Part shown: positions 6,436 to 64,000 of the stretch, one piece after another
How positions within the stretch are numbered: the stretch's first letter is position 1
Layout: each line of letters begins with the position of its first letter
Origin: Escherichia coli
GTDB taxonomy: Bacteria; Pseudomonadota; Gammaproteobacteria; Enterobacterales; Enterobacteriaceae
Reading direction: 5' to 3' (one strand)
Assembly (NCBI RefSeq): GCF_050920415.1
Contig: NZ_CP169309.1
DNA: 64,000 bases
Translations under genes and position numbers: made by a program
Notes under the pieces: generated by a model
The model's database searches: none
What the model was told of the DNA's origin: nothing
The model's input: the letters and a program-made list of their open reading frames with translations, nothing else

Positions 6436-6518
6436 TTCTTTCCCAGATATGGAGTGAACATCTGCGAAAATGTAGCACATTTCAAGGTAAACAAGAAGCG
6501 CATCCATGCGCATTTTCA

Positions 6519-8438: not shown

Positions 8439-8559
8439 TTCATTGCTCCAGACGAATGATATGATGCAACCATGATGTGATTGCATACCGAAATGGTACT
8501 ATTGAGTATTTATCCAGTAGGTTACGATGCCATTCCACCCAACTGGTGAGGCATCAAGG

Positions 8560-33147: not shown

Positions 33148-33444
33148 ATGGAATTTCTGATAGTTTTTGTTGTTGTTTTGGTCATCATTCTTTTTGTTTT
33201 GCTAAGCATTAGCAAAAAGCTATCTCAAATGATTGAACATAGCTCTAATCGCGCAAAAGAAGAAGAGCATCTAATTGATATAAAAGAGATTCTCTCTGAT
33301 ATAAAAATCACATTAGATGAAATAAAATACACAACAGATCTAATTGAACAGTATAAAATACCAACCCCAAACGAGAGAAAATCAATAGATCAATATCGTA
33401 TTGACTTAGAAATCGACGAAATGCTAAGCAACAGAAAGGACTAA
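33148..33444 (+). CDS. 98-aa single-pass membrane protein co-transcribed with repressor (candidate superinfection-exclusion/abortive-infection moron)
   Basis: SD GGAGGG then ATG 33148, 40 nt after cI stop; MEFLIVFVVVLVIILFVLLSISKK... TM helix then charged helical tail; very AT-rich; terminator follows. Confidence 0.6.
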   Translation: MEFLIVFVVVLVIILFVLLSISKKLSQMIEHSSNRAKEEEHLIDIKEILSDIKITLDEIKYTTDLIEQYKIPTPNERKSIDQYRIDLEIDEMLSNRKD

Positions 33445-33447
33445 AAA

Positions 33448-33474
33448 CACCCGGCCTCAGCGCCGGGTTTTTCT
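33448..33474 (+). terminator. rho-independent terminator after the cI-linked moron
   Basis: Stem CCCGGC/GCCGGG with 5-nt loop followed by TTTTTCTTTC. Confidence 0.65.
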
Positions 33475-33597: not shown

Positions 33598-33690
33598 AAA
33601 TACCTTTGTTATCCATCACTTATAACTTATTTACCACAAAATATAAATTAGGTTATTGACCACACCTATAACCTAAGTTATCTTTAAGCC
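33598..33690. promoter_or_regulatory. OL operators and pL promoter (-35 TTGACC 33656-33661, -10 TATCTT 33679-33684)
   Basis: Operator palindrome ataacctaagttat (33668-33681) overlapping spacer and -10; second half-matching site atacctttgttat near 33600. Confidence 0.6.
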
Positions 33691-33878: not shown

Positions 33879-34184
33879 ATGGCAGTAGTCATTACATATC
33901 TGGCTGACGATAACGCCAGAAATCGCCGCAGAGCACGCAGGCAGGCTCAACGTGAACAGGCAATGCAAGAACAGCGACTGGCGCGAAAGATTGCGCTAAA
34001 GCTCTCTGGTTGCGTCAGAGCAGATAAAGCAGCATCACTCGGAAGCCTTCGCTGCAAGAAGGTAGAAGAAGTCGAGCGTAAACAGAACCGTATTTACTAC
34101 CGAAAGCCACGGAGTGAAATGGGTGTGACATGCTCAGGCCGCCAGAAGCAACGCGGAAAATCAATTCCAGCTTATTACGATTGA
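33879..34184 (+). CDS. N: antitermination protein N (arginine-rich motif; phage 21 N-like)
   Basis: 101-aa ORF; NARNRRRARRQAQREQ arginine-rich N-terminus; LARKIALKLSGCVRADKAASLGSLRCKK...EVERKQNRIYY resembles phage 21 N as recalled. Confidence 0.7.
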   Translation: MAVVITYLADDNARNRRRARRQAQREQAMQEQRLARKIALKLSGCVRADKAASLGSLRCKKVEEVERKQNRIYYRKPRSEMGVTCSGRQKQRGKSIPAYYD

Positions 34185-34663: not shown

Positions 34664-34765
34664 TACGAGTAAGCACTGTGTATTCATTCCAACGAGTGAA
34701 TACACGGAGCAATGTCGCTCGTAACTAAACAGGAGCCGACTTGTTCTGATTATTGGAAATCTTCT

Positions 34766-34794
34766 TTGCCCTCCAGTGTGAGGGCAATTTTTTT
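34766..34794 (+). terminator. rho-independent terminator inside pL operon (N-readthrough type)
   Basis: Stem TTGCCCT/AGGGCAA with 7-nt loop followed by T7, 12 nt upstream of next gene start. Confidence 0.6.
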
Positions 34795-34932
34795 GATGGA
34801 GGATATATGAGTGAAGTAACAGATTTAGTTGTTATTGAAAAAGCAAATGCAATGACTGTATTTCAGTCTGCCGACCAGATTGAAGAAATCTGAACCGCCC
34901 CGGGTTTCCTGGAGAGTGTTTTATCTGTGAAC

Positions 34933-35820
34933 TCAGGCTGCCAGATCATTGTTTCCGATGGAAGCATAATAAGCTTTTTCTGCTTCTGCCGGAGGAGTAT
35001 GGCCCAGCCTTCCCAGCAATCGTCGATTGTTATACCAGTCCACCCACGTGAGTGTGGCCAGTTCCACTTCTGCACGGTTTTTCCAGCTCTTACGGTGTAT
35101 TACCTCCGCTTTGTAAAGACCATTGATGCTCTCAGCCATCGCGTTGTCATACGAGTCGCCTGTACTCCCTGTTGATGCCAGCAGTTTTGCTTCTTTTAGT
35201 CGCTCCGTATAGGCCAGTGACACATACTGAGAGCCTTTATCGCTGTGATGGATGGTGCCAGACGGACGACGGGCCCACAACGCCTGCTCCAGCGCATCCA
35301 GCACGAATGTCGTTTCCATAGACGATGAGACCCGCCACCCCACGATGTATCCGGCAAACACATCAATGATGAACGCCACATAGACGAAGCCCTGCCATGT
35401 GCTGACGTAAGTAAAATCAGCCACCCACAGCTGGTCAGGACGTTCTGCCACGAACTGACGGTTTACGCGGTCACCTGTGGCAACGGTTTTCCGGCTGACG
35501 GTAGTGCGGACCTTTTTACCCCGGAGAACACCGGCAAGTCCCATAACCGCCATGAGGCGCGCCACTGTACATCTGGCCACCCTGATTCCTTCCCGTAACA
35601 ACTGACGCCAGACTTTACGCACACCGTACACCTGATGATTTTCATCGTATACGCGCTGTATCTCTCTCTTCAGCCAGTCATCGCGCTGCGCACGGGCACT
35701 GCGTTTATCAGGATGATGCCGCTGCTGCTGACAATGGTAATACGTTGACGGGGCGATATGCAGTTCACTGCATACCGGTCCGACCCCGTACTGCTCACGC
35801 AGCTTATCCAGCAGTGGCAT
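34933..35820 (-). CDS. IS3-family transposase OrfB (DDE integrase domain)
   Basis: 295-aa ORF with DDE-type catalytic region; overlaps orfA end as expected for programmed -1 frameshift fusion. Confidence 0.85.
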   Translation of the reverse strand: MPLLDKLREQYGVGPVCSELHIAPSTYYHCQQQRHHPDKRSARAQRDDWLKREIQRVYDENHQVYGVRKVWRQLLREGIRVARCTVARLMAVMGLAGVLRGKKVRTTVSRKTVATGDRVNRQFVAERPDQLWVADFTYVSTWQGFVYVAFIIDVFAGYIVGWRVSSSMETTFVLDALEQALWARRPSGTIHHSDKGSQYVSLAYTERLKEAKLLASTGSTGDSYDNAMAESINGLYKAEVIHRKSWKNRAEVELATLTWVDWYNNRRLLGRLGHTPPAEAEKAYYASIGNNDLAA

Positions 35821-36146
35821 TATTTTTTCCAGAGGCGGTCGAACTCCGCCTTCGCAAAATAAGCGGAAGCCTGGCGAAGGATATCGTTACTGCGGCGCAG
35901 TTCACGATTTTCACGTTCCAGCTCTTTCAGACGCTGACGTTCAGCGGTGGTGAGCCCACCATCACCGCTCCCGGTATCCCTCTCATGCTGGCGAACCCAG
36001 ACACGCAGAGTCTCTGGCGTACAGCCAATCTTTGGAGCAATGGAACAAATTGCCGCCCATTGTGAGTCATATTCGCCCTGACTTTCCAGAACCATACGAA
36101 CTGCGCGTTGACGGACTTCGGGGGAAAAACGAGTATTTTTAGTCAT
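35820..36146 (-). CDS. IS3-family transposase OrfA (HTH)
   Basis: 108-aa [60 protein letters not shown]... Confidence 0.85.
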
Positions 36147-37112
36147 CCTGTTTACCTCTTTCTCAGGAAGTTTAGTCTCCAGGATTTCCGGGGCGGTTCA
36201 ATCCTTCAAAAGGTTGAACGTGAAGTTATGTCCTTTGTGCCTGATATCACAACGGCAAAGGGCAGAAAGGAGATCGCTTCTCTGGCGTATAAAGTTGCGC
36301 AGACGAAAACATATCTCGATGGTCTTGGCAAAGACCTTGTTGCTGAACTGAAGGAAATTCCAAAGCTAATTGATGCCAACCGCAAGACAGTGCGCGATCG
36401 CCTTGATGAGCTGAAAGCCAAGGCACGCCAGCCTCTTACTGATTATGAGGAAGAACAGGCGCGGATTAAAGCCGAAGAAGAAGCTAAGGCAGCAGCTGAA
36501 GCTCTCGCAAAGCAAATTGAGTCTGACCATGAAATAGCGATTTTGATGGATCGCGAATTTGACCGCCAAAGAGAAGAGGCAAGACTCAAAGCTGAGCAGG
36601 AAAAGCGAGAGCATGAAGAACGCTTAAAAAGAGAAGCTGAAGAGAAAGCAAGAGCAGAAGCCGAAGCAAAGGCAAAAGCCGAAATTGAAGCAGCCGCAAG
36701 GCGAGAAGCAGAAGCTAAGGCCGCAGCGGAACGTGCAGAGCGTGAACGCATTGAGGCCGAGCAACGAGCACAGCGCGAAGCAAAAGAGGCAGCAGAACGA
36801 GCTGAAAGAGAAAAGCAGGCAGCAATTGAAGCAGAACGCAGAAAAGCACAGGAGGAGGCTGAACGAATCCGTCGCGAGGCTGAAGCAAAAGAGCAAGCCA
36901 GAATCGCAGAAGAAAAAAGAATCAAGGACGAAGAAGAGCACAGAGCAAAGGATAAAGCTCACCGGAAAGAAGTAAATAACAAAATACTTGCTGACCTTAT
37001 CAAGGTTGGCGCATCAGAAGATGTTGCTAAAAATATCATAACAGCCATCGTAAAAGGCGAAGTATTCGCAACAAAAATAACCTACTAATAAAACCAACAT
37101 AAGGAACCACCC

Positions 37113-37244
37113 ATGATTTACGCAATCGCGGGAGGCGCTCGCATGGGTGCCTTCCAACTAAATGAATCTTTACTTGAACGAATCACCCGTAAATTACGTG
37201 ACGGATGGAAAAGAGTTGAGGTCCTATTATGCGCAATGAAATAG
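37113..37244 (+). CDS. cIII: CIII-like protein (FtsH/HflB inhibitor)
   Basis: Hand-translated 43-aa ORF MIYAIAGGARMGAFQLNESLLERITRKLRDGWKR... matches lambda CIII core SLLERITRKLRDGWKR; below ORF-track cutoff. Confidence 0.7.
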   Translation: MIYAIAGGARMGAFQLNESLLERITRKLRDGWKRVEVLLCAMK

Positions 37245-37381
37245 CCATCAATCACCATATGCTTCGTGCTGCACAGAACAAAGCAGTAATAGCCAGATTT
37301 ATTGGTGATTCCAAAATGTGGCTTGAAGCAAATAAAGCGATGAAATCAGCTATCAACATTCCGTGGTATCGCAGGAAATGA
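37229..37381 (+). CDS. Kil-like host cell-division inhibitor
   Basis: Hand-translated 50-aa ORF MRNEIAINHHMLRAAQNKAVIARFIGDSKMWLEANKAMKSAINIPWYRRK; Kil-family FIGD motif; immediately after cIII-like gene. Confidence 0.5.
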   Translation: MRNEIAINHHMLRAAQNKAVIARFIGDSKMWLEANKAMKSAINIPWYRRK

Positions 37382-40088: not shown

Positions 40089-40982
40089 ATGAGCGAGATT
40101 AACCATCAGGCACTGCGTGAGGCGGCGGAAAATGCAACTAAGGGGAGCTACATCGTAGGGCATACATCGGTCAATCAGCACGGTAATTTAACAGGAGTTT
40201 TTGTTTGTCAAAAATGGAAAGGAGAACCCGGAGGCGTGATTGCAGAATGTCATGTTAACTGCCTGGTTGAAACAGATGTTCAGGCTTATGCAAACGCTGA
40301 ATTTATTGCTGCCTTTAATCCAAATGTTGCGCTGGCGCTACTGGATGAACGGGAAAGAAACCAGCAATACATCAAACGCCGCGACCAGGAGAACGAGGAA
40401 ATTGCGCTAACGGTAGGGAAGCTGCGTGTTGAGCTGGAAGGCAAAGACAAGCTGATTGCAGAGCTTAGAAAACAATGCGCTGAATGGGAGCGAAAAGCAT
40501 TAAGCAACTTTGAAGAGTGTGCTGCGATGGCTGAACGTATCGAAGAGTTGCAGACAAAATCTGCACCAGATTCGTTTGGCATCATCGGTGAAAATATTCG
40601 AACACAGGATAATCGAATAACGTCAGACCCTATGTTTTGTGTGTATCAAAAGCGCGAAATCGTTGTTGATGCTGATTATGACTATGACCGGATTGTCTGG
40701 GTTGATGAAGATGGCAATGAAGCCAATAAACGCCAAAGTCGTCGTCTCGAACTACTTCACGAAAACTTTCGAGAGCCACCAGAAAAATGGCGGCGCGTTG
40801 CTGTGAAAGATATTGATGAATTCGTTACCTGCTGTTTCACCGAACAGGGTTGTAAAGACTACCTGGCAGTCAATGGTCACAATCTTCGCTTGCCATTTAT
40901 ATATGTAAAAAGCGGTTTCAGGAACGCTGAATATATCGGCATAAGAAACTGGCTTGCTGGCATTCGCATCAAAGGAGAGTGA
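40089..40982 (+). CDS. Ead/Ea22-like early protein
   Basis: 297-aa ORF MSEINHQALREAAENA...ALALLDERERNQQYIKRRDQENEEIALTVGKLRVELE resembles lambda Ea22. Confidence 0.7.
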   Translation: MSEINHQALREAAENATKGSYIVGHTSVNQHGNLTGVFVCQKWKGEPGGVIAECHVNCLVETDVQAYANAEFIAAFNPNVALALLDERERNQQYIKRRDQENEEIALTVGKLRVELEGKDKLIAELRKQCAEWERKALSNFEECAAMAERIEELQTKSAPDSFGIIGENIRTQDNRITSDPMFCVYQKREIVVDADYDYDRIVWVDEDGNEANKRQSRRLELLHENFREPPEKWRRVAVKDIDEFVTCCFTEQGCKDYLAVNGHNLRLPFIYVKSGFRNAEYIGIRNWLAGIRIKGE

Positions 40983-40983
40983 G

Positions 40984-41175
40984 ATGAATGGACAAATATC
41001 AATTGTTCGACCAGGAGCATGTGACGATCGCGAAATACGAATGATTATTCGTCTGGCGATGGGGAAAACAATAACAGCTCTCATTACTCCAGAAAATCTC
41101 GCATTAGCTTTAACCGGAAAGTCAGACCTGCCAGTGGAGCTAAAGCTGCGAAATGTTGAGATTAAGGTGAAATAG
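40984..41175 (+). CDS. hypothetical 63-aa protein
   Basis: SD AGGAGA then ATG 40984; part of ORF 40954..41175. Confidence 0.35.
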   Translation: MNGQISIVRPGACDDREIRMIIRLAMGKTITALITPENLALALTGKSDLPVELKLRNVEIKVK

Positions 41176-41177
41176 CT

Positions 41178-42383
41178 ATGACCACTATTACCAAAGAACG
41201 TATCGAATTGTTCATTAAAAATCCGCTTGATAACGGACTTACTCGTGGCGAACAAATGGAACTGGCACGAATTGCACTGGCCTCGCTTGAGGCAGAGCCA
41301 GTTGGTGCATTCCACATTGCTGAACAGCAAGTTGACGGAACAAGTGACTATCTCAAGGATGGAGAATGGCCTATTGATAATGGGATTATTGAAGTCTACG
41401 CCGCTCCGCCAGTACCGGTAGTACCTGCTGCATTACCTGAGAACGACGATGAGGACGGGCATGACATTGATTATCTTGAGCCATCTGAAGTTTACGCGCT
41501 TGGGCGAACAGCTGGCTGGAACGCCTGCCGCGTCGCCATGCTTCAGTCCGGAAACTTTCTGGAAAACAAGAATTCGTCAACCAATAATTTTCGGGAAATC
41601 GCGGAAACGTCAACCAACTCTCCGGTAATTCCTGATGAGGTGTTGTCCGCAATCCGGGAGGTTGCCAGGATTCGCGCCGATTTCGATGATTTTGACGGTG
41701 ACAGGCGAGGTATCGGTGATTGTCTGGATGAGGCCGAGCAAGAGCTTATCGTTACCATTAACAAATATGCCAGTCAGTTGGCAGTAGAGCCGGTAGTGCC
41801 TGCTGTTCTGGAACGTTTGCGAACCATTGTAGCGGACCCACGCGCATTACCTCGCAGAAAAGAATGGGTTAGTGGGCAGCAGTACAGTTACGTACTTCTC
41901 GAAAACGTAGAAGCTATGGTTGATGAAGCCTGCCGTGCAGCCATGCTCTATGGTGCCGTACATGCAAGCCAGGCTTACAAGTTGCCACAAACGCAGTTTA
42001 AACAGGTTGCTGACCTCTACGAAATGCAATTTGATGACGGTCGCACTTGTACCTTTCACACTGATGCGCAAAAGGCTGTGCAATGGCTTCAGGCGTGCGA
42101 CGGAAACAGGGTTCAGGAATACGTTAAGCTGGAACGATTGCAGAACGCACTGTCTGGCAACTCTCCGGTAACTCCGGATGGTTGGATAAGCTGTAGTGAG
42201 CGAGTGCCAGAGGACGGTCAGCACGTAATTATTTTATGTGATGGCGCATTCGTTCTTTATGCGCAATATCGGGGCGGTGAGTTTTTTGATGTCGTCCGCA
42301 ATGGTGAGGAGTTCTTCGAAACGCAGAGCCGCAATGTAACCCACTGGATGCCGCTACCAGAACCGCCGCAGGAGGCGAAATGA
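41178..42383 (+). CDS. Ead/Ea22-family protein with DUF551-like C-terminal domain
   Basis: 401-aa ORF; C-terminal WISCSERVPEDGQHVIILCDG...HWMPLPEPP. Confidence 0.55.
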   Translation: MTTITKERIELFIKNPLDNGLTRGEQMELARIALASLEAEPVGAFHIAEQQVDGTSDYLKDGEWPIDNGIIEVYAAPPVPVVPAALPENDDEDGHDIDYLEPSEVYALGRTAGWNACRVAMLQSGNFLENKNSSTNNFREIAETSTNSPVIPDEVLSAIREVARIRADFDDFDGDRRGIGDCLDEAEQELIVTINKYASQLAVEPVVPAVLERLRTIVADPRALPRRKEWVSGQQYSYVLLENVEAMVDEACRAAMLYGAVHASQAYKLPQTQFKQVADLYEMQFDDGRTCTFHTDAQKAVQWLQACDGNRVQEYVKLERLQNALSGNSPVTPDGWISCSERVPEDGQHVIILCDGAFVLYAQYRGGEFFDVVRNGEEFFETQSRNVTHWMPLPEPPQEAK

Positions 42384-44469: not shown

Positions 44470-44542
44470 TGATTTTATTTTGACTGATAGTGACCTGTTC
44501 GTTGCAACAAATTGATAAGCAATGCTTTTTTATAATGCCAAC

Positions 44543-44557
44543 TTAGTATAAAAAAGC
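44543..44557. other. attL core (lambda att common core, int-proximal junction) with lambda P-prime arm at 44470-44542
   Basis: TTAGTATAAAAAAGC identical to the 5123-5137 copy; adjacent sequence reads as lambda attP P-prime arm. Confidence 0.88.
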
Positions 44558-44603
44558 AGGCTTCAACGGATTCATTTTTCTATTTCATAGCCCGGAGCAA
44601 CCT

Positions 44604-45887
44604 GTGAATACATTTTCAGTTTCCCGTCTGGCGCTGGCATTGGCTTTTGGCGTGACGCTGACCGCCTGTAGCTCAACACCACCCGATCAACGTCCTTCTG
44701 ATCAAACCGCGCCTGGTACCTCTTCTCGCCCGATTCTGTCGGCAAAAGAAGCGCAGAATTTCGATGCTCAACACTATTTTGCGTCCCTGACGCCGGGCGC
44801 AGCATCATGGAATCCATCACCGATTACTCTGCCTGCACAACCTGACTTTGTTGTCGGCCCGGCGGGTACTCCGGGTGTAACGCATACCACGATTCAGGCG
44901 GCGGTAGATGCGGCAATTATCAAGCGCACCAACAAGCGCCAGTATATTGCCGTGATGCCTGGTGAATATCAGGGAACGGTGTATGTCCCTGCCGCTCCGG
45001 GTGGAATTACTCTGTACGGTACAGGTGAAAAACCGATTGATGTGAAGATTGGGCTTTCCCTTGATGGGGGCATGAGCCCTGCCGACTGGCGTCACGACGT
45101 CAACCCGCGCGGCAAATATATGCCAGGTAAACCAGCGTGGTATATGTACGATAGCTGCCAGAGCAAACGCAGCGACAGTATCGGCGTTCTCTGCTCTGCG
45201 GTCTTCTGGTCACAAAACAATGGCCTGCAACTGCAAAACCTGACCATCGAAAACACGCTGGGTGATAGCGTAGATGCGGGTAACCATCCGGCGGTGGCAC
45301 TGCGTACTGATGGCGACAAAGTGCAGATCAATAACGTCAACATTCTCGGTCGTCAGAATACATTCTTTGTCACCAACAGTGGTGTGCAAAACCGTCTGGA
45401 AACCAACCGTCAGCCGCGTACTCTGGTGACCAACAGTTACATTGAAGGGGATGTGGATATCGTTTCTGGTCGCGGCGCAGTGGTGTTCGATAATACCGAA
45501 TTCCGCGTGGTGAACTCACGTACTCAGCAAGAAGCGTATGTGTTTGCACCGGCTACGCTGTCTAACATCTATTACGGTTTCCTCGCCGTAAACAGCCGTT
45601 TCAATGCTTCCGGTGATGGCGTGGCGCAACTGGGCCGCTCGCTGGATGTTGATGCCAATACCAACGGTCAGGTGGTGATCCGTGATAGCGCCATCAACGA
45701 AGGTTTTAACACGGCTAAACCGTGGGCCGATGCGGTGATTTCCAATCGTCCGTTTGCGGGTAATACTGGCAACGTTGATGATAACGACGAAGTACAGCGT
45801 AATCTGAATGACACTAACTACAACCGCATGTGGGAATACAATAACCGCGGCGTGGGTAGCAAAGTGGTTGCAGAGGCGAAGAAGTAA
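44604..45887 (+). CDS. ybhC: outer-membrane lipoprotein YbhC (pectinesterase-like)
   Basis: 427-aa ORF MNTFSVSRLALALAFGVTLTACSSTPPDQRPSDQTAPG... with lipobox LTAC. Confidence 0.93.
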   Translation: MNTFSVSRLALALAFGVTLTACSSTPPDQRPSDQTAPGTSSRPILSAKEAQNFDAQHYFASLTPGAASWNPSPITLPAQPDFVVGPAGTPGVTHTTIQAAVDAAIIKRTNKRQYIAVMPGEYQGTVYVPAAPGGITLYGTGEKPIDVKIGLSLDGGMSPADWRHDVNPRGKYMPGKPAWYMYDSCQSKRSDSIGVLCSAVFWSQNNGLQLQNLTIENTLGDSVDAGNHPAVALRTDGDKVQINNVNILGRQNTFFVTNSGVQNRLETNRQPRTLVTNSYIEGDVDIVSGRGAVVFDNTEFRVVNSRTQQEAYVFAPATLSNIYYGFLAVNSRFNASGDGVAQLGRSLDVDANTNGQVVIRDSAINEGFNTAKPWADAVISNRPFAGNTGNVDDNDEVQRNLNDTNYNRMWEYNNRGVGSKVVAEAKK

Positions 45888-45899
45888 AAGCGATTAACT

Positions 45900-46015
<116 letters not shown>

Positions 46016-46027
46016 ACATGGCGCTTT

Positions 46028-48289
46028 TTACATCTGACGGTTTTTATTGAAGTTAATCAAACTACCCGCCTTGATAATCTCGCGCTCTTCAGCAGTCAGA
46101 CTTTCCATATAGAGCGTAATCTCTGTTACCGGCGCATCTTCATGGATCACATAACCTTTAAACGTCGTCCCCGGATTATCCAGCGCCGCTTTAATGCCAA
46201 GGATGTAAATGTAATCCCCCACTTCAAACGTTGGTGCTTCCGCCATTTGCAGCGGTAACATCCCCCAGTTGATGACGTTAGAACGGTAGCGTTTAGTCGC
46301 GTATTCCTCGGCAATATTCGCCAGACCGCCAATCACACGCTGGCAGCTCGCCGCCTGCTCACGCGCAGACCCATCGCCTGGTTTCACCGCATAGACCATG
46401 CTGCCAATTTCAGTTTGCAGCGGATCAATATGCTCCTGACCAGCAATCTGCTTAATGCGCGCAAACACCTCTGTCAGCTCGCTGACATTGCCCGCCAGAC
46501 GCTGATTTTCCAGCTCGGCAGTCGCTTTACTTCTGCCAACATAACCTGGATCGCGGCGTGACAGGGTAAACTCCGCCAAACCAATCGGATTTGAACGATA
46601 AGAAGAGGTTTCACCGGAAGGAATCAATTCGTCGGTGGTGGTCACTTCGTCGAGGATCTTCGAGCACACTTTGAGGACGATATTGTCAGTCAGCGCCCCC
46701 AATTCCGGCCAGTCTTTGATGTTCGGTCCGTAGATCAGCGATTGCTGGGTCGCCCCTTTCACAAAGCCCTGATAGACGCGATTTTTATACAGCGTGACAT
46801 CGAAGGCATACTCCGGCACGATGTCCCAGCAGTCCAATTCACTTGCAGAGGTTAAATAACCACCGTTTGCGGCTGTTGCAGCGATAGAACGGGCATCCAT
46901 CAACGCCACCGCTGACATCTGACCGTTGGCTGGCTTAGAGCCTTCGCGGTTCGGGAAGTTACGCGTGGTGTGGCGAATACTCAAACCGTTGTTGATTGGC
47001 GTGTCGCCCGCGCCAAAGCATGGGCCGCAAAACGCAGTTCTGATGATTGCACCTGCGCCAATCAAATCTGCTACCACGCCTTTTTTGGCTAAATCCATAA
47101 ACACCGGCTGTGATGATGGATAAACCGCCAGCGAGAAGGTGTCATTGCCACAGGATTGACCGCGCAGCGCATTAGCTGCAGCGATAACGTTTTCATAGTT
47201 ACCGCCAGAACAGCCCGCGATAATCCCCTGCTGCACTTTCAGGCGACCATTTTCGACTTTATCCAGCAATGAGAGTTTGGCTTTCCCGTGCGCCACGCGC
47301 TCGGACTCAATTTCAATCTCACGCAGAATGTCAGTCAGGTTCTGGTTCAGCATGTCGATTTCATACACGTTGCTCGGGTGGAACGGCAGCGCAATCATTG
47401 GTTTGATGGCACTCAAATCAACGCTGATGCAGCCATCGTAGTACGCCATCGGTTGAGGGTTAAGCTGACAATAATCCTGGCCGCGACCGTGCAGCGCCAG
47501 CCAGTTATGGACTTCTTCATCAGTTTGCCAGACAGAACTTAAACAGGTAGTTTCAGTGGTCATCACGTCAACGCTGTTACGGAAATCGGTAGAGAGCGCT
47601 GCAACACCGGGCCCCACGAATTCCATCACTTTGTTTTTGACGTAGCCGTTTTTGAACACGGCACCAATGATAGCCAGCGCCACATCCTGCGGCCCCACAT
47701 ACGGCGCAGGTTTTCCGGTCAAATGCACCGCAACAACTCCCGGATAGTCGATATCCCAGGTGTCATTAAGCAGCTGTTTTACCAACTCACCGCCACCCTC
47801 ACCGACTGCCATTGTCCCTAATGCACCGTAACGGGTGTGGCTGTCTGACCCGAGGATCATTTTGCCGCCTCCTGCCATCATCTCACGCATATATTGATGG
47901 ATGACCGCAATATGCGGAGGCACAAAAATACCGCCATAACGCTGCGCTGCCGATAAACCAAAAACATGGTCATCACCGTTAATGGTGCCGCCGACGGCGC
48001 AGAGTGAGTTATGGCAGTTGGTCAGCACATACGGCAGCGGGAAACGTTCCATACCGGACGCTTTAGCGGTCTGTACAATACCAACAAAGGTAATATCGTG
48101 AGAGGCTAATGAATCAAACTTAATTTTAAGTTTATCCATATTTCCGGACGTATTATGAGAAGAGAGAATAGACCAGGCAATAGTGCCTTTTTTTGCTTCT
48201 TCTTTTTTAATTTCGCCTCTGAAATGTTCTTCGGCAATTATTTCGTTATTACTGGCGAGAAATACGCCTTTTTCAGATAACTTGATCAT
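46028..48289 (-). CDS. ybhJ: aconitase-family protein YbhJ
   Basis: ORF 46028..48313; product ~753 aa from [31 protein letters not shown]... Confidence 0.9.
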
Positions 48290-48471
48290 CAAATGCTCCA
48301 GATATCTGCGCACCGTTAAGTGCGCAGAAAGATAATAAATGGATATACTCTAAATAATTCGAGTTGCAGGAAGGCGGCAAGCGAGTGAATCCCCAGGAGC
48401 TTACATAAGTAAGTGACTGGGGTGAGCGAACGCAGACGCAGCACATGCAACTTGAAGTATGACGAGTATAT

Positions 48472-49905
48472 TTACAGCATGTTCCAGCCGATCAGCATAT
48501 TCCACCACCACACGCCGAGGGTGATATGTACCAGGAAGGTTAATATCGTCAGTACCGCACCGACCAACCACCAGGATTTAATATCGTTATAGCCTACGCC
48601 GAAGATGACCGGACCTGCCGCACCGCCATAGTGAGTAACCATGCCGCCATAGGAGTTGGAGAAAAGCAGCGCCAGCGCAGTTAACATTAACGGTGCGCCG
48701 GAGACGTTCGCCAGCATGGCAAATACCGGTAACATGGCAACGATATAGGCACTACCGGAAGCAAAGAAATAACGCACGATGATGCTAAGGAAAATAATAA
48801 CGAAGAAAGCTACGTTACCATGACCGTCAAATGCCAGGTTATTTTTAAAGACTTCAGCTAACCATTCGAAGAATTTAACTTTCGATAATAAGGAGCTTAA
48901 GCCGATAATACCGCCGTACCAGATTAAGGTATTCCAGCCGCCTTTATTTTTCACCACGTCTTCCCAGGTAACGATCCCCAGCAGCAGCATGGTCGCCATA
49001 ACAACGATTGCCACAGTGGATTCATCTACCCCGAGCGTTTTACTGAAAATCCAGCCCAGCAGCGCCAGCACGAAGACACCGAGCAGCATTTTTTCGCGGA
49101 TTTTCATCGGCCCCAGCTCAGCAAGGCCCGCTTTGGCGATGGTTTTGTTATCCACTTTCTTAATTTCTGGCGGATACATGGTGTAAATCACCAGCGGAGT
49201 GACCAGTAGCATAATGATGCCAGGCAATCCAGCAGCCAGCGCCCATCCACCCCAACTAATTTGTAGGTGCAGAATATCATTGATCATTTTCAGCGCCAGA
49301 ATGTTCCCCGCCATTGCGGTAAAGAACATATAGCTGGTGGTTTTAGTGACCATGTAAATGGACATCATCAGGTAATGTCCAACACGACGTGGGCTTTTTT
49401 CAGGTTCTGACCCCAAAGCCACCGCCACGCTGTTGATGATCGGTAACACAATGCCGCCCGCACGCGCGGTGTTAGACGGTGTTGCCGGAGCCAGTACCAG
49501 ATCGAGGAATACCGTAACGTAACCCAGCCCCAGGGTAGTGCTACCAATTTTGCCAATCAATAAATAGGCAATACGTTTACCTAACCCTGTGGTCACAAAT
49601 GCGGCACTTAAGGTAAACGCCGAGAATACCAGCCAGGTGGTACCTGAAGAGTAACCGCTTAATACGGCGGTAGTCTTAAATGCACCATCGGATAAATTAC
49701 CGACCACCACCATGGAGGCAGCAACGGCAATTAACAGTACGACAGGTTCCGGGAAAGGCTTGATAACCAGCCCCACAATGGCCGCCAGGTAAATACCAAA
49801 AAGCACCCACGCCAGTTCGCTTAATCCTGCCGGAGCTGGCATAAAGCCAATAATACATGGGATCGCTAATATCAGAATTAGCTTCCATAACGATTTCTTA
49901 TTCAT
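48472..49905 (-). CDS. ybhI: DASS-family anion:sodium symporter YbhI
   Basis: 477-aa multi-TM ORF MNKKSLWKLILILAIPCIIGFMPAPAG... Confidence 0.9.
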   Translation of the reverse strand: MNKKSLWKLILILAIPCIIGFMPAPAGLSELAWVLFGIYLAAIVGLVIKPFPEPVVLLIAVAASMVVVGNLSDGAFKTTAVLSGYSSGTTWLVFSAFTLSAAFVTTGLGKRIAYLLIGKIGSTTLGLGYVTVFLDLVLAPATPSNTARAGGIVLPIINSVAVALGSEPEKSPRRVGHYLMMSIYMVTKTTSYMFFTAMAGNILALKMINDILHLQISWGGWALAAGLPGIIMLLVTPLVIYTMYPPEIKKVDNKTIAKAGLAELGPMKIREKMLLGVFVLALLGWIFSKTLGVDESTVAIVVMATMLLLGIVTWEDVVKNKGGWNTLIWYGGIIGLSSLLSKVKFFEWLAEVFKNNLAFDGHGNVAFFVIIFLSIIVRYFFASGSAYIVAMLPVFAMLANVSGAPLMLTALALLFSNSYGGMVTHYGGAAGPVIFGVGYNDIKSWWLVGAVLTILTFLVHITLGVWWWNMLIGWNML

Positions 49906-49980
49906 TTAAAATCCTGTTCTTTCTGTATGACTCATACAGAAGTCCTTTATTGATTGTCCTTATCCTGACAACGAATATTT

Positions 49981-51033
49981 TCAGGGAAGATAAACTTCAC
50001 CGGAAAATATTTTTCTGGTTGTCCGAATAACAGATGCGCGTAACGTCGTGGCATCCTGACCTTCATTACTTAAATGAACGTCGAGTGCACCACTGGGGTG
50101 TTCAATATTGATATTGCCGTATCCTACAGAAGGGACGATTTGTCGGGTGACGGTGCCTTCCAATGCACAACTACTGGAAATAGCAATAGCACCGGTTATC
50201 GCCAGCGCGCGATGGCAAGAATGCGGCATAAAATAACGCACATTAATTGCCCCGCCTTTCTGCGCAGGAGAAATAAGCACAGGTTTAGGGATAACCATAT
50301 TACTGACATCGCCTAAGCCCATTGCTTTACCCGCTTGTAGGCGGATAGATTCAATGCGGGCTAATAATGTTTTGTCGGCATCCAGTTCCGCCGGTAATTC
50401 ATAGCCTGTTTTACCCAAATAATCAGCCGGAATAATGACGACTGGCATCGCCATATCGATACAAGTCACTGGAACATCGTCAAAATAATCAATCTGATTA
50501 TCAGTCGGGAAGACTTTTCCGGTTTTGGTTCCAGCGGCATTCAGGAAAGTGAGCGCAACCGGTGCGGCAGTACCCGGTACGCCGTCAATTCTGGCGCTAC
50601 CCTCGTACTCGACAACACCATTTGGCGTTTGCACATCAGCTTCGATGAACGTACCCGTATTGACGTTGCGGATACATACGCGGGTAACTGGCGAAGTCGC
50701 TGCAATCAAACCATTTTCAATGGCGAATGCCCCAACGCCAGACAGCATATTGCCGCAGTTAGGCGTGGTATCGACACGTTGCTCATGGACGATAACCTGA
50801 GCAAACAGATAATCGACGTCAGCACGCGGATCGCTGGAACGGCTAATTATGGCGACTTTACTGGTCAGTGGATTACCGCCGCCAATACCGTCAATTTCCA
50901 GATCGTTACCGGAACCCATAATTGCCATCAATATTTTATCGCGCTGCGTTTGATCTTCGGGTAGATGTTCCGCTAACAGGAACGCGCCCCTCGAGGTTCC
51001 ACCTCGCATCATCACGCAGGGTATTTTTTTCAT
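49981..51033 (-). CDS. ybhH: PrpF/AcnD-accessory-like isomerase YbhH
   Basis: 350-aa ORF MKKIPCVMMRGGTSRGAFLLAEHLPEDQTQRDKILMAIMGSGN... Confidence 0.9.
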   Translation of the reverse strand: MKKIPCVMMRGGTSRGAFLLAEHLPEDQTQRDKILMAIMGSGNDLEIDGIGGGNPLTSKVAIISRSSDPRADVDYLFAQVIVHEQRVDTTPNCGNMLSGVGAFAIENGLIAATSPVTRVCIRNVNTGTFIEADVQTPNGVVEYEGSARIDGVPGTAAPVALTFLNAAGTKTGKVFPTDNQIDYFDDVPVTCIDMAMPVVIIPADYLGKTGYELPAELDADKTLLARIESIRLQAGKAMGLGDVSNMVIPKPVLISPAQKGGAINVRYFMPHSCHRALAITGAIAISSSCALEGTVTRQIVPSVGYGNINIEHPSGALDVHLSNEGQDATTLRASVIRTTRKIFSGEVYLP

Positions 51034-51216
51034 AATAATGCCCTCAATTTAAAAACATAACTTATTGCGATATGGTTACATTAAGGGCAAAGCATCTCTA
51101 ATGACTTTAGCTCAACGATTAATAACATTTTTTCATTAATTTAAGTTGGCTAAATGCAGTTAAAATTTTTAACTGCCTGTCATCCAAAATCGTCGCATCC
51201 ATTTTTCGGAGTAATA

Positions 51217-52170
51217 ATGAAGCATGAATTATCAAGTATGAAGGCATTTGTCATACTGGCAGAGTCCAGTTCATTTAACAATGCTGCTAAATTACTCAAT
51301 ATTACGCAACCTGCATTAACGCGAAGAATAAAAAAGATGGAAGAGGATTTACATATTCAACTATTTGAGCGTACAACTCGCAAGGTTACGTTAACAAAAG
51401 CAGGAAAAAGGTTGCTCCCGGAGGCGCGGGAATTAATAAAGAAATTCGATGAAACGCTTTTTAATATTCGTGATATGAATGCTTATCATCGTGGTATGGT
51501 GACGTTAGCGTGTATTCCGACCGCAGTATTTTATTTTTTACCACTGGCAATCGGTAAATTTAATGAGCTGTATCCCAATATTAAAGTGCGGATTCTGGAA
51601 CAAGGCACGAATAATTGCATGGAATCGGTGCTGTGTAACGAATCAGACTTTGGCATAAACATGAACAACGTCACAAATTCATCCATTGATTTTACCCCAC
51701 TGGTCAACGAGCCGTTTGTGCTGGCCTGTCGGCGTGACCACCCATTAGCCAAAAAGCAGCTTGTAGAATGGCAGGAGTTAGTGGGTTACAAAATGATTGG
51801 CGTACGCTCCTCCAGCGGCAACCGACTTTTGATAGAACAACAGCTGGCCGACAAGCCCTGGAAGCTGGACTGGTTTTACGAAGTGCGTCATCTTTCGACG
51901 TCATTAGGACTGGTGGAGGCGGGACTGGGGATTTCGGCGCTTCCTGGTCTGGCAATGCCCCATGCACCCTATTCTTCGATTATTGGTATCCCGCTGGTGG
52001 AACCGGTTATACGTCGGACATTGGGGATTATTCGCCGCAAAGATGCCGTGCTTTCTCCGGCTGCAGAACGCTTTTTTGCCTTGCTGATTAATTTATGGAC
52101 CGACGATAAAGACAACTTGTGGACCAATATCGTCGAACGCCAGAGACATGCGTTACAGGAAATAGGTTAA
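51217..52170 (+). CDS. ybhD: LysR-family transcriptional regulator YbhD
   Basis: ORF 51154..52170; from MKHELSSMKAFVILAESSSFNNAAKLLNITQPALTRRIKKMEE (HTH), 317 aa. Confidence 0.9.
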   Translation: MKHELSSMKAFVILAESSSFNNAAKLLNITQPALTRRIKKMEEDLHIQLFERTTRKVTLTKAGKRLLPEARELIKKFDETLFNIRDMNAYHRGMVTLACIPTAVFYFLPLAIGKFNELYPNIKVRILEQGTNNCMESVLCNESDFGINMNNVTNSSIDFTPLVNEPFVLACRRDHPLAKKQLVEWQELVGYKMIGVRSSSGNRLLIEQQLADKPWKLDWFYEVRHLSTSLGLVEAGLGISALPGLAMPHAPYSSIIGIPLVEPVIRRTLGIIRRKDAVLSPAAERFFALLINLWTDDKDNLWTNIVERQRHALQEIG

Positions 52171-52210
52171 TACACCGGCGCAGGAGAGACTGCGCCGGGT
52201 GAATCAGCGG

Positions 52211-53242
<1,032 letters not shown>

Positions 53243-53360
53243 CTAAAATTAGTCGCTTTTGGCGGTGAATGCTGAATTAAAACGCAGAATTTTGTCCGAT
53301 AGTGGTATCGGTGTACCATTCGCGCAGACGAAAATTCTTAACCTTAATCTGGAATACGCC

Positions 53361-54179
53361 ATGACCACACGCGTGATTGCACTCGACTTAGACGGCACCT
53401 TATTGACCCCGAAAAAAACCTTGCTTCCTTCATCGATAGAAGCCCTGGCCCGCGCTCGCGAAGCAGGCTATCAATTAATCATCGTCACGGGCCGCCATCA
53501 TGTCGCTATTCATCCTTTTTATCAGGCGCTGGCGCTGGATACACCTGCTATTTGCTGTAATGGCACCTATTTGTATGATTATCATGCAAAAACAGTGCTT
53601 GAAGCCGATCCAATGCCCGTTAATAAAGCCCTGCAACTCATTGAGATGCTGAATGAACACCACATTCACGGTCTGATGTATGTGGATGATGCAATGGTCT
53701 ATGAGCACCCGACCGGGCATGTCATTCGCACGTCTAACTGGGCGCAAACCCTGCCGCCGGAACAGCGTCCGACCTTTACCCAGGTTGCTTCACTGGCCGA
53801 GACAGCGCAGGAAGTTAACGCAGTATGGAAGTTCGCCCTGACACACGATGACCTGCCGCAATTGCAGCATTTTGGTAAGCATGTTGAACATGAATTGGGA
53901 CTGGAGTGTGAATGGTCCTGGCACGATCAGGTTGATATTGCCCGCGGTGGTAACAGCAAAGGTAAACGCCTGACGAAATGGGTTGAGGCGCAAGGCTGGT
54001 CGATGGAAAACGTCGTCGCATTCGGCGATAATTTTAATGATATCAGTATGCTGGAAGCCGCTGGTACAGGCGTGGCGATGGGCAACGCTGATGACGCAGT
54101 AAAAGCGCGTGCCAACATTGTGATTGGTGATAACACCACCGACAGCATTGCCCGGTTCATTTATAACCACCTGATTTAA
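53361..54179 (+). CDS. ybhA: HAD-family pyridoxal phosphate phosphatase YbhA
   Basis: ORF 53259..54179; from MTTRVIALDLDGTLLTPKKTLLPSSIEALARAREAGYQLIIVTGRHH, 272 aa. Confidence 0.9.
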   Translation: MTTRVIALDLDGTLLTPKKTLLPSSIEALARAREAGYQLIIVTGRHHVAIHPFYQALALDTPAICCNGTYLYDYHAKTVLEADPMPVNKALQLIEMLNEHHIHGLMYVDDAMVYEHPTGHVIRTSNWAQTLPPEQRPTFTQVASLAETAQEVNAVWKFALTHDDLPQLQHFGKHVEHELGLECEWSWHDQVDIARGGNSKGKRLTKWVEAQGWSMENVVAFGDNFNDISMLEAAGTGVAMGNADDAVKARANIVIGDNTTDSIARFIYNHLI

Positions 54180-55238
54180 TCAGGCGGTTATCGAGACACT
54201 TTTAATTTGCGCGTATAGCCATAGGCCAGGTTTGATCGCCAGTTCATCCCTGGCCCACGGGCTTATTCGCGCCCACAGCGTTTTACCGCCGACTTCCAAT
54301 TCCACTTCCACCTGACCGTTGTCGTCATAGCTATTGACGACTTTGGCGCGCAATACGTTACGAATGCTGGTTTGTTGCGGCGGTTGTAAAACCAGAGAAA
54401 CATCGGAAGCCTGGATGCGGATGCGTAGCGCGGCTTGCAGCGGTTCATCCAGCTTATTAACCCACAAATGCTGATCGCCCAGCGCCAGCGCGGTCATCGC
54501 GTAACGCGGATGATGTTCCAGTACCGTTACTTTCAGAATGCTGCTTTGTTGCTCTTTCGGCAACCATGGATTCATTACGCTACTGCCCCAGACTTCTTCC
54601 AGCGCACCGAACGCTTTCACCTGGCCGTTTTCCAGTACCATCACTCGGTCTGCCAGATGGAGGATCTCATCCAGCGAATGGCTGACATAGAGCATCGGAA
54701 TGTTGATTTCCCGCGTCAACCGTTGCAGATAAGGCAATAGCTCGCGTTTTCGCGGAAGATCCAGCGAGGCCAGTGGTTCATCCAGCAATAATAATTCCGG
54801 TGCCGTCAGCAATGCCCGGCCAATTGCCACACGCTGTTTTTCGCCTCCGGACAGGCTGCCCGGTAAACGCTCAAGCAACGGATCAATGCCTAAAAGCGCC
54901 ACCAGCTTATCGAACTGATCGACCATGCTTTTCGCCATGCCGTAGCGCAGATTTCCACGTACTTTGTAATGCGGAAACAGCCGCGCATCCTGAAACACAT
55001 AACCAACGCGACGCTTTTCTGGCGAAAGGCAGATCCCTTTTTCGGCGTCATTTAGTACCCGACCATTGAGGACAATCCGCCCTTTTTGCGGACGTGTCAG
55101 CCCACTGATGGCATTAATCAGCGAGGTTTTTCCAGCTCCGGAGACACCAAAGATAGCGGTGATACCATTGGCGGGCAGCGTTTCATTAATGGCCAGGCAA
55201 TGATTGCCCAACGTCTGGGAAAAATTCAGTTCCAGCAT
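54180..55238 (-). CDS. modC: molybdate ABC transporter ATPase ModC
   Basis: 352-aa ORF; Walker [10 protein letters not shown], signature [15 protein letters not shown]. Confidence 0.95.
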
Positions 55239-55240
55239 GA

Positions 55241-55930
55241 TTAGCGCCCCGCCCGTTCACGGCTGATTCTGGCCAGCCATTCAGAAATCAACAGGGAGAT
55301 CATCGCCAGCGCAATAGAGATAATGCACAGTCTCGCCGCACCACTTTCCCCGCCGGGGGTCTGGATCAGGGTATACATGGCTGAAGGAATGGTTCGCGTT
55401 TCGCCAGGAATGTTAGAAACAAAGGTGATCGTTGCCCCAAACTCACCAAGCGAACGAGCGAATGCCAGTACCGTACCGACGATAATTCCCGGTAAGGTCA
55501 GCGGTAACGTGATAGTAAAGAACACGCGCCAGCGCCCTGCCCCCAATGTTCTTGCGGCCTGTTCCAGTTTGACATCAACCCCTTCCAGCGCCAGACGAAT
55601 TGCCCGCACCATCAACGGAAACGACATCACGGCGGCAGCGAGAACCGCGCCACGCCAGCTAAAGGCGAAGGTAATGCCAAACCAGTCATACAGACGTTCA
55701 CCGATAAATCCGCGCCGTCCCATCGAAACTAATAACAAGTAACCGACGACCACGGGCGGTAACACCAGCGGTAGATGCAGTACGCTGTCGAGCAGAGCTT
55801 TGCCCGGAAATGTGCAACGCACCAGTAACCAGGCAAAAAAGATCCCAAACGGCAGGCTAAACAGCACAGCCAGGGAAGAAACTTTCAGGCTTAATAAAAC
55901 CGCCTGCCATTCTGGATCGGTCAGTATCAT
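55241..55930 (-). CDS. modB: molybdate ABC transporter permease ModB
   Basis: 229-aa multi-[41 protein letters not shown]... Confidence 0.95.
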
Positions 55931-56703
55931 TACTTGGTTGTAAATCCGTAGCGTTTAAAAATTTCCGCAGCCTGCGGTCCCTTCAGATAATCATAAAATG
56001 CTTTTACTGTCGCATTGTTATGTCCTTCCACAACAGCAACCGGATATTCCACTTTTTTATGTGAATCTTCCGGGAAGGTGGCAACCACTTTTACCCCTTT
56101 GCTGGCAACTGCGTCAGAACCGTAAACAATACCCAGCGGCGCTTCATTGCGTTCGACCAACGCCAGCGCGCCACGAACATCTTCCGCCGGAGCCAGTTTC
56201 GGGGAGAGCGTATCCCATGCGCCCAGTTTTTGCAGTGCTTCTTTTGCATAAATGCCAGCGGGAACATGTTCCGGATCACCAACCGCCAGGCGACCGCCAT
56301 TCAGCAGCGAAGTCCAGTTGGTTTTGCTGTCAATGGAGAAATCTTTCTGCTCGCTGGCTTTCGGTGCTACAACAACCAGGCTATTACCGAGTAGAGTCTG
56401 ACGCGAGGCCGTATCGATCGCTTTTTTATCAACCGCATAATCCATCCATTTCTGATCGGCAGAAATAAACAGATCCGCAGGCGCACCCGCTTCAATCTGA
56501 CGGGCCAGGGTAGAAGACGAGGCGAAAGAAGAGACGACATCTACGCCTTTCTCTTTTTTATACTGCGTAGCGATGTCCTGCATTGCGTTAGTCAGTGATG
56601 CGGCGGCGAATACCGTGATTTTCCCTTCATCTGCCAGTACATTGCCAGCAGCAGCGAAAGAGAGTGCCGCCCCGGCAAACAAGTTCAACCATTTACGAGC
56701 CAT
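55930..56703 (-). CDS. modA: molybdate-binding periplasmic protein ModA
   Basis: 257-aa ORF MARKWLNLFAGAALSFAAAGNVLADEGKITVFAAASLTNAMQDIATQYKKEKG... Confidence 0.95.
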   Translation of the reverse strand: MARKWLNLFAGAALSFAAAGNVLADEGKITVFAAASLTNAMQDIATQYKKEKGVDVVSSFASSSTLARQIEAGAPADLFISADQKWMDYAVDKKAIDTASRQTLLGNSLVVVAPKASEQKDFSIDSKTNWTSLLNGGRLAVGDPEHVPAGIYAKEALQKLGAWDTLSPKLAPAEDVRGALALVERNEAPLGIVYGSDAVASKGVKVVATFPEDSHKKVEYPVAVVEGHNNATVKAFYDYLKGPQAAEIFKRYGFTTK

Positions 56704-56720
56704 TGGTAACCCCTTAATGC

Positions 56721-56747
56721 AACGTTATGTAGGCGATAATATAACGG
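56721..56747. promoter_or_regulatory. ModE operator in modA promoter region
   Basis: Minus strand reads CCGTTATATTATCGCCTACATAACGTT, resembling the ModE site CGTTATATT...TACATAACG. Confidence 0.5.
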
Positions 56748-56868
56748 CTAGCTCAGAATTTTCCCAGCAGTTATTGCTAACCTTTGTGAGGTAGATGAGA
56801 AAAATATCGGCAGGAAAAGCAGGAAGTTGAGAACAAGAAAATGCCCGACTAAGCGGGCATTCAGGGAA

Positions 56869-57036
<168 letters not shown>

Positions 57037-57146
57037 TCATGAGACTATTCTAACCGCTAAGCACAGAAAAGCACTCCCCTTTTGTGCGGTCAGCTTTGCG
57101 TGGCGTTCGTTTTCCGTCACAATAAGACTTTTGCCAGGACATTGTT

Positions 57147-57935
57147 ATGCAGGCCGAAATCCTTCTCACCCTTAAGCTCCAACAAAAATTATTCGCCGAC
57201 CCGCGCCGCATTTCGTTACTAAAACACATTGCGCTTTCCGGTTCCATTAGCCAGGGAGCGAAAGATGCCGGTATCAGCTATAAAAGCGCCTGGGATGCCA
57301 TTAACGAGATGAATCAGTTAAGTGAGCATATTCTGGTTGAGCGCGCAACAGGCGGTAAAGGTGGCGGCGGCGCAGTACTGACCCGCTATGGTCAGCGACT
57401 GATTCAGCTCTATGATTTACTGGCGCAAATCCAGCAAAAAGCCTTTGATGTGTTAAGTGACGATGACGCCTTGCCGCTGAACAGCCTGCTGGCCGCGATC
57501 TCACGTTTTTCACTGCAGACCAGTGCCCGTAACCAGTGGTTTGGCACCATCACCGCCCGCGATCATGATGACATTCAACAACATGTTGATGTCTTACTGG
57601 CCGATGGCAAAACACGCCTTAAAGTCGCGATTACCGCACAAAGTGGCGCACGTCTGGGACTGGATGAAGGCAAAGAAGTGTTGATTCTGCTGAAAGCGCC
57701 GTGGGTGAACATTACTCAGGATGACACTGTCGCCCAGGGTGCCGACAACCAATTGCCGGGCATTATTCGTCATATAGAGCGCGGTGCAGAACAGTGCGAA
57801 GTATTAATGGCGTTACCTGACGGGCAAACTCTGTGCGCCACGGTGCCGATAAATGAAGCAGCTTCTCTTGAACAAGGGCAGAATGCCACGGCTTACTTTA
57901 ACGCCGACAGCGTGATTATCGCTACGCTTTGCTAA
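57147..57935 (+). CDS. modE: molybdate-responsive transcriptional regulator ModE
   Basis: 262-aa ORF MQAEILLTLKLQQKLFADPRRISLLKHIALSGSISQGAKDAGISYKSAWDAINEMNQL... Confidence 0.95.
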   Translation: MQAEILLTLKLQQKLFADPRRISLLKHIALSGSISQGAKDAGISYKSAWDAINEMNQLSEHILVERATGGKGGGGAVLTRYGQRLIQLYDLLAQIQQKAFDVLSDDDALPLNSLLAAISRFSLQTSARNQWFGTITARDHDDIQQHVDVLLADGKTRLKVAITAQSGARLGLDEGKEVLILLKAPWVNITQDDTVAQGADNQLPGIIRHIERGAEQCEVLMALPDGQTLCATVPINEAASLEQGQNATAYFNADSVIIATLC

Positions 57936-58002
57936 GCGTGTTGACAATTTGTTATGAAACACGTATCCCTGTCAGTAATCGCTGCAAAAAATGGGATATA
58001 AA

Positions 58003-59475: not shown

Positions 59476-59642
59476 GTCGGTAATGCTGACTGTACCGGAG
59501 GCGGCCTTAGCGCCCTCTCCGGCCTAAAGTTCGACGCATCCAGGCATGAAACCGCGACTTTTTTCAGATAAAAAGCGCAATCATTCATAAACCCTCTGTT
59601 TTATAATCACTTAATCGTGCATAAAGAACGGCTAAATTCTTG

Positions 59643-59658
59643 TGTAAACGATTCCACT
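59643..59658. promoter_or_regulatory. gal operator OE (GalR/GalS site) upstream of galE
   Basis: GTGTAAACGATTCCAC about 80 bp upstream of galE ATG. Confidence 0.75.
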
Positions 59659-59735
59659 AATTTATTCCATGTCACACTTTTCGCATCTTTGTTATGCTAT
59701 GGTTATTTCATACCATAAGCCTAATGGAGCGAATT

Positions 59736-60752: not shown

Positions 60753-60761
60753 GGAACGACC

Positions 60762-61808: not shown

Positions 61809-61811
61809 GTA

Positions 61812-63994: not shown

Positions 63995-64000
63995 CTTTAA

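Follow-up and report, generated by a model that had tools for sequence, protein, structure and literature searches.

An IS629/IS1203-type insertion sequence within the gene-33 homologue of an Sf6-like prophage of Escherichia coli

IS629 elements are known from prophages, where 62% of the IS629 copies sit, and they generate target duplications of 3-4 bp (Rump et al., 2011, PMC3271280). Subtypes of IS629, the isoforms IS1203 and IS3411 included, differ by 4-5% (Rump et al., 2011, PMC3271280). In the Stx prophage phiPA2, IS629 disrupts a methyltransferase gene of the early region and thereby alters spontaneous induction and virulence, and the prophages compared there, which are nearly identical in other respects, differ mainly in where the IS lies (PMC10810198). 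A further precedent is phage Sf6 itself, which carries IS911 in ninG and is viable. The locus described here is comparable to both cases: as in phiPA2, IS629 has entered a lambdoid prophage at an accessory gene of the early region (PMC10810198), and as in Sf6, an IS3-family element lies in an early gene, expected to be non-essential, of an Sf6-type phage. In contrast to our locus, the Sf6 case involves IS911, ninG and the early-right operon, and for the phiPA2 disruption an influence on spontaneous induction and virulence has been demonstrated.

Our analysis covers a stretch of 64,000 nucleotides from one E. coli contig, in the following called the window. With a probability of roughly 0.93, we conclude that a probably active IS629/IS1203-type IS transposed into codon 28 of the homologue of Sf6 gene 33, which belongs to an Sf6-like prophage between ybhB and ybhC (Table 1). 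In the whole analysis, we found no evidence contradicting the insertion itself.

The prophage (Lederbergvirus-type; P22-like and lambdoid) comprises about 39 kb between ybhB/bio and ybhC/gal. Its early-left operon lies on the plus strand and consists of i) a pL-like promoter, ii) a boxA-like sequence with a hairpin, iii) N, iv) a PHROG 1636 gene, v) a tL2A-like terminator and vi) the interrupted gene, after which follow cIII, kil and the genes for an Erf/Rad52-like annealing protein, ssb, an endonuclease and abc2. With the exception of the PHROG 1636 gene, the gene order is that of Sf6, and the proteins from cIII to abc2 are 96-100% identical to their Sf6 counterparts. The interrupted gene has the pL-operon position of the gene-33 family, namely between the tL2A terminator and cIII-kil. 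Sf6 gene 33 occupies the same position between tL2A and cIII and differs from the window gene in not being split by an IS. The original prediction had spoken of an early-left phage gene, and this is borne out, as the gene follows N and precedes cIII and kil.

Table 1. Features of the insertion and of the surrounding early-left operon. Positions refer to the window.
Feature	Position	Strand	Basis or remark
pL-like promoter	33656-33684	+	Sequence
boxA-like GCTCTTTAACA, followed by a hairpin (boxA/boxB-like nutL)	Upstream of N	+	Sequence
N	33879-34184	+	Early-left operon
Terminator-like hairpin with T run, at the position of Sf6/lambda tL2A	34766-34787	+	In Sf6, tL2A is annotated just before gene 33
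5' fragment of the Sf6 gene-33 homologue, codons 1-28	34807-34890	+	100% to Sf6 gp33 residues 1-28
First ATC of the target-site duplication; codon 28 (Ile) of the gene-33 homologue	34888-34890	.	Comparison with intact alleles
Complete IS629/IS1203-type insertion sequence (IS3 family)	34891-36200	-	1310 bp; transposase read against the direction of the pL operon
Right inverted repeat (IRR), downstream of orfB	34891-34915	.	22/25 against the other end
orfB, 295 codons, -1 relative to orfA; HTH_21 (PF13276) and rve (PF00665)	34933-35820	-	ORF list and Pfam
ALIL pseudoknot, frameshift stimulator	35749-35865	-	Rfam RF01497, 122.1 bits (gathering score 50), E = 6.7e-32, full-length
orfA, 108 aa; HTH_Tnp_1 (PF01527), NCBIfam NF033516	35820-36146	-	ORF list and Pfam
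A6 run (UGG AAA AAA UAA) at the end of orfA, likely -1 slip site	35823-35828	-	Sequence
Left inverted repeat (IRL), upstream of orfA	36176-36200	.	Inverted-repeat comparison and end search
Target-site duplication, copy 2 (ATC)	36201-36203	.	Single ATC in intact alleles
3' fragment of the Sf6 gene-33 homologue, codons 29-322 and stop	36204-37088	+	99.7% to Sf6 gp33 residues 28-322; PHROG 1376/21365
cIII, intact	37113-37244	+	PHROG and Sf6 comparison
kil, intact	37229-37381	+	PHROG and Sf6 comparison

Several other parts of the prophage deserve a brief description. A small ORF (33150-33468, plus strand) separates the repressor gene from the pL-like promoter and is followed by a strong bidirectional terminator-like hairpin at 33449-33468; Sf6 gene 38 and the lambda rex region have a comparable position. 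At the left end of the prophage (5395-6522 and 6519-8486, both on the minus strand), an O-antigen acetyltransferase-like gene (PHROG 3333/6705) adjoins the tailspike. Placed as oac is in Sf6, it is likely a serotype-converting moron. A 2.8-kb stretch (40089-42383, plus strand) is missing from the otherwise similar 3CM prophage and contains two mosaic ORFs of 297 and 401 aa, which match only PHROGs of unknown function (phrog_60, 250, 3205) and are probably of the ead/Ea22-like kind. PADLOC and NCBIfam gave no match for the ORFs of this stretch, and the PADLOC check for defence systems gave none for the ORFs neighbouring the insertion.

For the element itself, both ends are clearly defined. The sequence TGAACCGCCCCGG starts at 34891, its reverse complement ends at 36200, and there is no third occurrence in the 64-kb window. 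The same end coordinates and the length of 1310 bp had been predicted from the outset and are exact in the sequence. The ends read TGAACC...GGTTCA and thus have the TG...CA termini that are canonical for the IS3 family. Within the terminal 25 positions, a block of 13 exact matches is followed by three mismatches and another nine exact matches. Imperfect inverted repeats of this type, the TG...CA termini and the length (1.2-1.55 kb in this class) are all in agreement with an IS3-family element. The G+C content of the IS is 53.6% in comparison to 44.5% in the flanking phage DNA.

The coding capacity follows the IS3-family pattern as well, with overlapping orfA and orfB, a predicted -1 frameshift signal, an HTH at the N terminus and a DDE (rve) domain at the C terminus. 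The orfA stop and the orfB ATG overlap as TAATG in 0/-1 phase, and a -1 slip on the A6 run would yield a 404-aa OrfAB, a length that agrees with the 'programmed frameshift' CDS of 1214 nt that RefSeq annotates on homologous copies. The orfA stop codon is TAA in the window copy and TGA in the four other copies compared. OrfB scores 313.9 bits against NCBIfam NF033516 'IS3 family transposase' (cut-off 160), and the catalytic triad D244, D303 and E339 (OrfAB numbering) has DD(35)E spacing. Based on the domains, the triad, the frameshift signals and the existence of near-identical copies, the element is an intact member of the IS629 group and is probably active.

Following established IS3-family biology, such an element would have moved by copy-out/paste-in transposition. 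Ribosomes slipping by -1 on the A6 run, with the ALIL pseudoknot as stimulator, would produce the DDE transposase OrfAB, and staggered target cuts 3 bp apart would give rise to the ATC duplication. Membership in the IS629 group, together with the literature, would further imply a circular intermediate and IEE-stimulated excision (PMC9943667; bioRxiv 10.1101/2023.06.07.543989).

To place the element among its relatives, we compared the 1310 bp with 5,426 complete E. coli genomes and found matches at 31,011 places in 4,250 genomes, with a median of 4 and a maximum of 53 places per genome for IS629-type copies. Most of these copies are 95-99% identical to the window element at the nucleotide level. 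The best matches, in RM9088, UTAK-1 and the OkiPb strains, differ by a single nucleotide (99.9%) and encode an identical OrfAB. Against a copy from O157 that RefSeq labels 'IS3-like element IS1203 family transposase', identity is 97.1% for nucleotides and 97.3% for OrfAB amino acids. ISfinder regards elements as isoforms if they share more than 90% nucleotide or more than 95% amino-acid identity with a named reference, and measured against the RefSeq-labelled O157 copy, the window element exceeds both values for the IS629 isoform group (IS629/IS1203/IS3411). Together with the 99.9% identity to other copies, this supports the assignment to the IS3 family and the IS629/IS1203 type, which had originally been made from the letters alone. 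Further properties shared with IS629/IS1203/IS3411 are the length of 1310 bp, the TGAACCGCCCCGG termini, the -1 frameshift between orfA and orfB with an ALIL pseudoknot, the 3-bp duplication and the location in a prophage; to typical E. coli copies of this group the nucleotide identity is 95-98%. The window copy is not of the commonest O157 subtype; at least 99% identity was reached in only 43 of the 6,993 matching records from complete E. coli genomes.

If the IS and one ATC are removed, joining of 34807-34890 to 36204-37088 gives 969 nt, i.e. 322 codons and a stop in one frame, while deletion of two or four bases instead of three breaks this frame. The reconstructed ORF is held to at least 80% in one place in 495 of the 5,426 complete E. 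coli genomes, and its best matches are single uninterrupted pieces of 100% length and about 99% identity. The protein of about 322 aa proposed in the original prediction therefore exists intact in nature, and since it is found uninterrupted in 495 genomes, the insertion pattern is not due to chance. The reconstructed protein is 99.5% identical to Sf6 gp33 and to proteins of mEp043, mEp234, HK633, HK544, IME10, Sf101 and Stx1a phages. It matches phrog_1376, a PHROG of unknown function, over the full length and collinearly (residues 1-322, E = 4e-110). An alignment of homologues from prophages of Escherichia, Enterobacter, Citrobacter, Cronobacter and Salmonella shows conserved N- and C-terminal parts and a coiled coil that varies in length. 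In strain 07_3636, the gene-33 homologue is a pseudogene with an internal stop.

Searches for a domain in the gene-33 protein gave no match in Pfam, even at E <= 10, and none in NCBIfam, and a PDB sequence search returned only coiled-coil noise (E >= 0.005). An AlphaFold2 model, built from a 19-sequence alignment, reached a pTM of 0.28, with a single helix at residues 107-295 and a pLDDT of 40-70 in the N-terminal region. Homologue searches returned thousands of prophage proteins without a Pfam domain and with the spurious name 'TolA'. We rejected a TolA identity, as neither the N-terminal membrane anchor nor the C-terminal domain III of TolA was found and the protein matched no Pfam or NCBIfam model. 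Judged from its sequence, the likeness is limited to an Ala/Glu/Lys-rich helix and the 'TolA' name is a composition artefact; in the same way, both 'TolA' and 'antitoxin' as database names would go back solely to coiled-coil composition. Gene 33 encodes a coiled-coil protein and is a widely conserved accessory gene that is expected to be non-essential.

What does the insertion mean for this gene? The IS begins with TGA (34891-34893), and this stop codon ends the 5' fragment and leaves a 28-aa peptide (ORF 34753-34893). The insertion adds 1313 bp in total. The original prediction had called the position frame-preserving; this does not apply, since 1313 bp are added and the TGA stops translation, and the wording says no more than that the duplication measures 3 bp. 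As the gene is split into a 28-codon stub and a 294-codon remainder with neither promoter nor start, the gene-33 homologue is almost certainly knocked out.

A very unlikely alternative is that the gene is not knocked out, and that pL read-through yields a truncated protein starting at Met37 (ATG at 36228) or an IS-phage fusion starting at a TTG (36108), which keeps or changes the function. Transcription from pL is expected to traverse the IS, and no stop interrupts the frame between 36108 and the end of the gene at 37088. The internal ATG had been put forward in the original prediction as a possible start of a truncated product, and it is indeed in frame. The working product itself finds no such backing, as there is no Shine-Dalgarno motif at a workable distance before 36228 or 36108, and the 36 residues that would be lost include many invariant positions in the homologues from Escherichia, Enterobacter, Citrobacter, Cronobacter and Salmonella. 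Furthermore, neither the truncated nor the fusion product is on record as a called protein in an exact-protein look-up. We consider it less likely still that the loss of gene 33 was selected in the lysogen, for example because it encodes a costly, leaky host-takeover or anti-defence factor, with recurrent targeting of this short part of the early-left operon by IS629-type elements, or that an altered truncated or fusion protein is made. The selection reading would draw on the upstream IS629-type copies in other prophages, described below, and on the internal stop in strain 07_3636.

Concerning the rest of the operon, the analogy with lambda and Sf6 suggests N-antitermination of the pL transcripts, so that polarity on cIII, kil, the Erf/Rad52-like recombinase, ssb, xis and int should be slight after induction. 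Since an accessory gene within an N-antiterminated operon is hit, the insertion would also be expected to be tolerated by the phage.

The repeat that flanks the element can be compared directly with uninterrupted alleles. In strain HCM-22C-2, base-level alignment of the intact alleles gives one ATC (...GAAGAAATC|CTTCAAAAG...). With a single ATC in the intact alleles, the ATC pair is a genuine 3-bp target duplication that corresponds exactly to codon 28. This upholds the 3-bp ATC duplication of the original prediction, which had named a duplication of 4 bp or none at all as speaking against it; on checking, 3 bp holds. Moreover, 3 bp is the modal duplication for this IS: among 76 distinct IS629-type sites, 41 have 3 bp, three have 4 bp, two have 5 bp and 30 have none. 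For the 30 sites without a duplication, recombination between IS copies or deletion of neighbouring DNA suggests itself. The two 5-bp direct repeats, CGAGT and GGGTG, belong to the copies in locus L011 (151-1458) and locus L059.

A duplication of 4 bp (AATC) around an element of 1309 bp is a highly improbable reading. It draws on the A that precedes the left ATC and equals the last base of the IS, so that AATC stands on both sides, and on the 3-4 bp quoted for IS629 in the literature (PMC3271280). However, the terminal A is found in every copy examined, also where G, C or T occupies the matching flank position. An A occupies this flank position in only 14 of the 38 independent 3-bp sites (p = 0.09), which makes the shared A a coincidence, and an element lacking it would not have the canonical TG...CA ends of the IS3 family. 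We therefore retain the duplication of 3 bp.

Two apparent regularities in the flanks were considered and given up. An A before the duplication, in the sense of a four-base target, was seen at nine of ten sites in a first small sample and fell at the 38 independent sites mentioned above. A 'CCGCCAGA' flank motif resembling the IS end appeared in the top matches to the left junction; it was absent from unbiased samples, and we dropped it because the first sample had been chosen by similarity to the window flank. The 38 independent 3-bp sites (among loci L006-L139) are, however, weakly biased towards a palindromic target, 5'-C N [NNN] N G-3': a C precedes the duplication at a distance of two bases in 20 of 38 (p = 3.5e-5), and a G follows at the same distance in 21 of 38 (p = 1.2e-4). 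The same C/G bias is seen at copies without a duplication. The insertion site in the window (34883-34890, 36201-36208) has neither the C nor the G. For comparison, no sequence-based target was reported for IS629 by Rump et al. (2011, PMC3271280).

With respect to its distribution, the junction seems to be confined to this strain. A 300-bp query across the left junction had no covering match in the 5,426 complete E. coli genomes, the exact 28-mer junction was absent from the metagenome contigs searched, and none of the 120 IMG/VR loci with this IS end has the IS inside gene 33. The single nucleotide that separates the element from other copies, the perfect duplication and the lack of the junction in any other searched genome argue that the insertion is recent and strain-specific.

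Other prophages contain independent IS629-type copies about 0.1-0.5 kb upstream of the gene-33 homologue and outside the gene. One copy (L111, minus strand) lies about 140 bp upstream, before a tL2A-like terminator; the copies in L002 (4001-5310) and L130 lie about 470 bp upstream and adjoin sieB, and the copy in L001 (4001-5310) adjoins ral. This upstream region may be a regional IS hot spot or simply tolerated ground.

A separate observation concerns the integrity of the prophage. In comparison to close homologues, single-base indels occur at about 12865, 19198, 21470, 21970 and 24795, and they shift the frames of the gp7-like ejection protein (-1), the portal (+1), terL (-1, twice) and the endolysin (-1). 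The prophage may be defective and decaying, or these five late-gene frameshifts may be local assembly indel errors. The late genes affected are essential ones, and either way the question of whether the phage tolerates the insertion may be moot. The adjoining chromosome (44539-64000, 19.5 kb) is 100.0% identical to strain MFDS1022581. That the IS at 34891-36200 was itself placed here by the assembly, through contigs wrongly joined at one of the repeated IS copies, has a next to negligible probability: the multi-copy nature of IS629-type elements (median 4, up to 53 per genome) and the five suspicious frameshifts would fit, but both junctions fall at one codon of one gene with a perfect 3-bp duplication, and removal of the IS restores the gene exactly, which a mis-join would not produce.

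Taken as a transposition into codon 28 of the gene-33 homologue, the event is a routine strain-specific gene disruption of a kind that is already known, and it gives no new insight into how IS3-family elements work. As a strain-specific marker, the insertion could serve for typing in the style of IS-printing. Besides, it represents a natural knock-out of a very widespread gene of lambdoid/P22-like phages, Sf6 gene 33, and in the search for the role of this gene, the lysogen could be a ready-made mutant for comparison with an IS-free relative.
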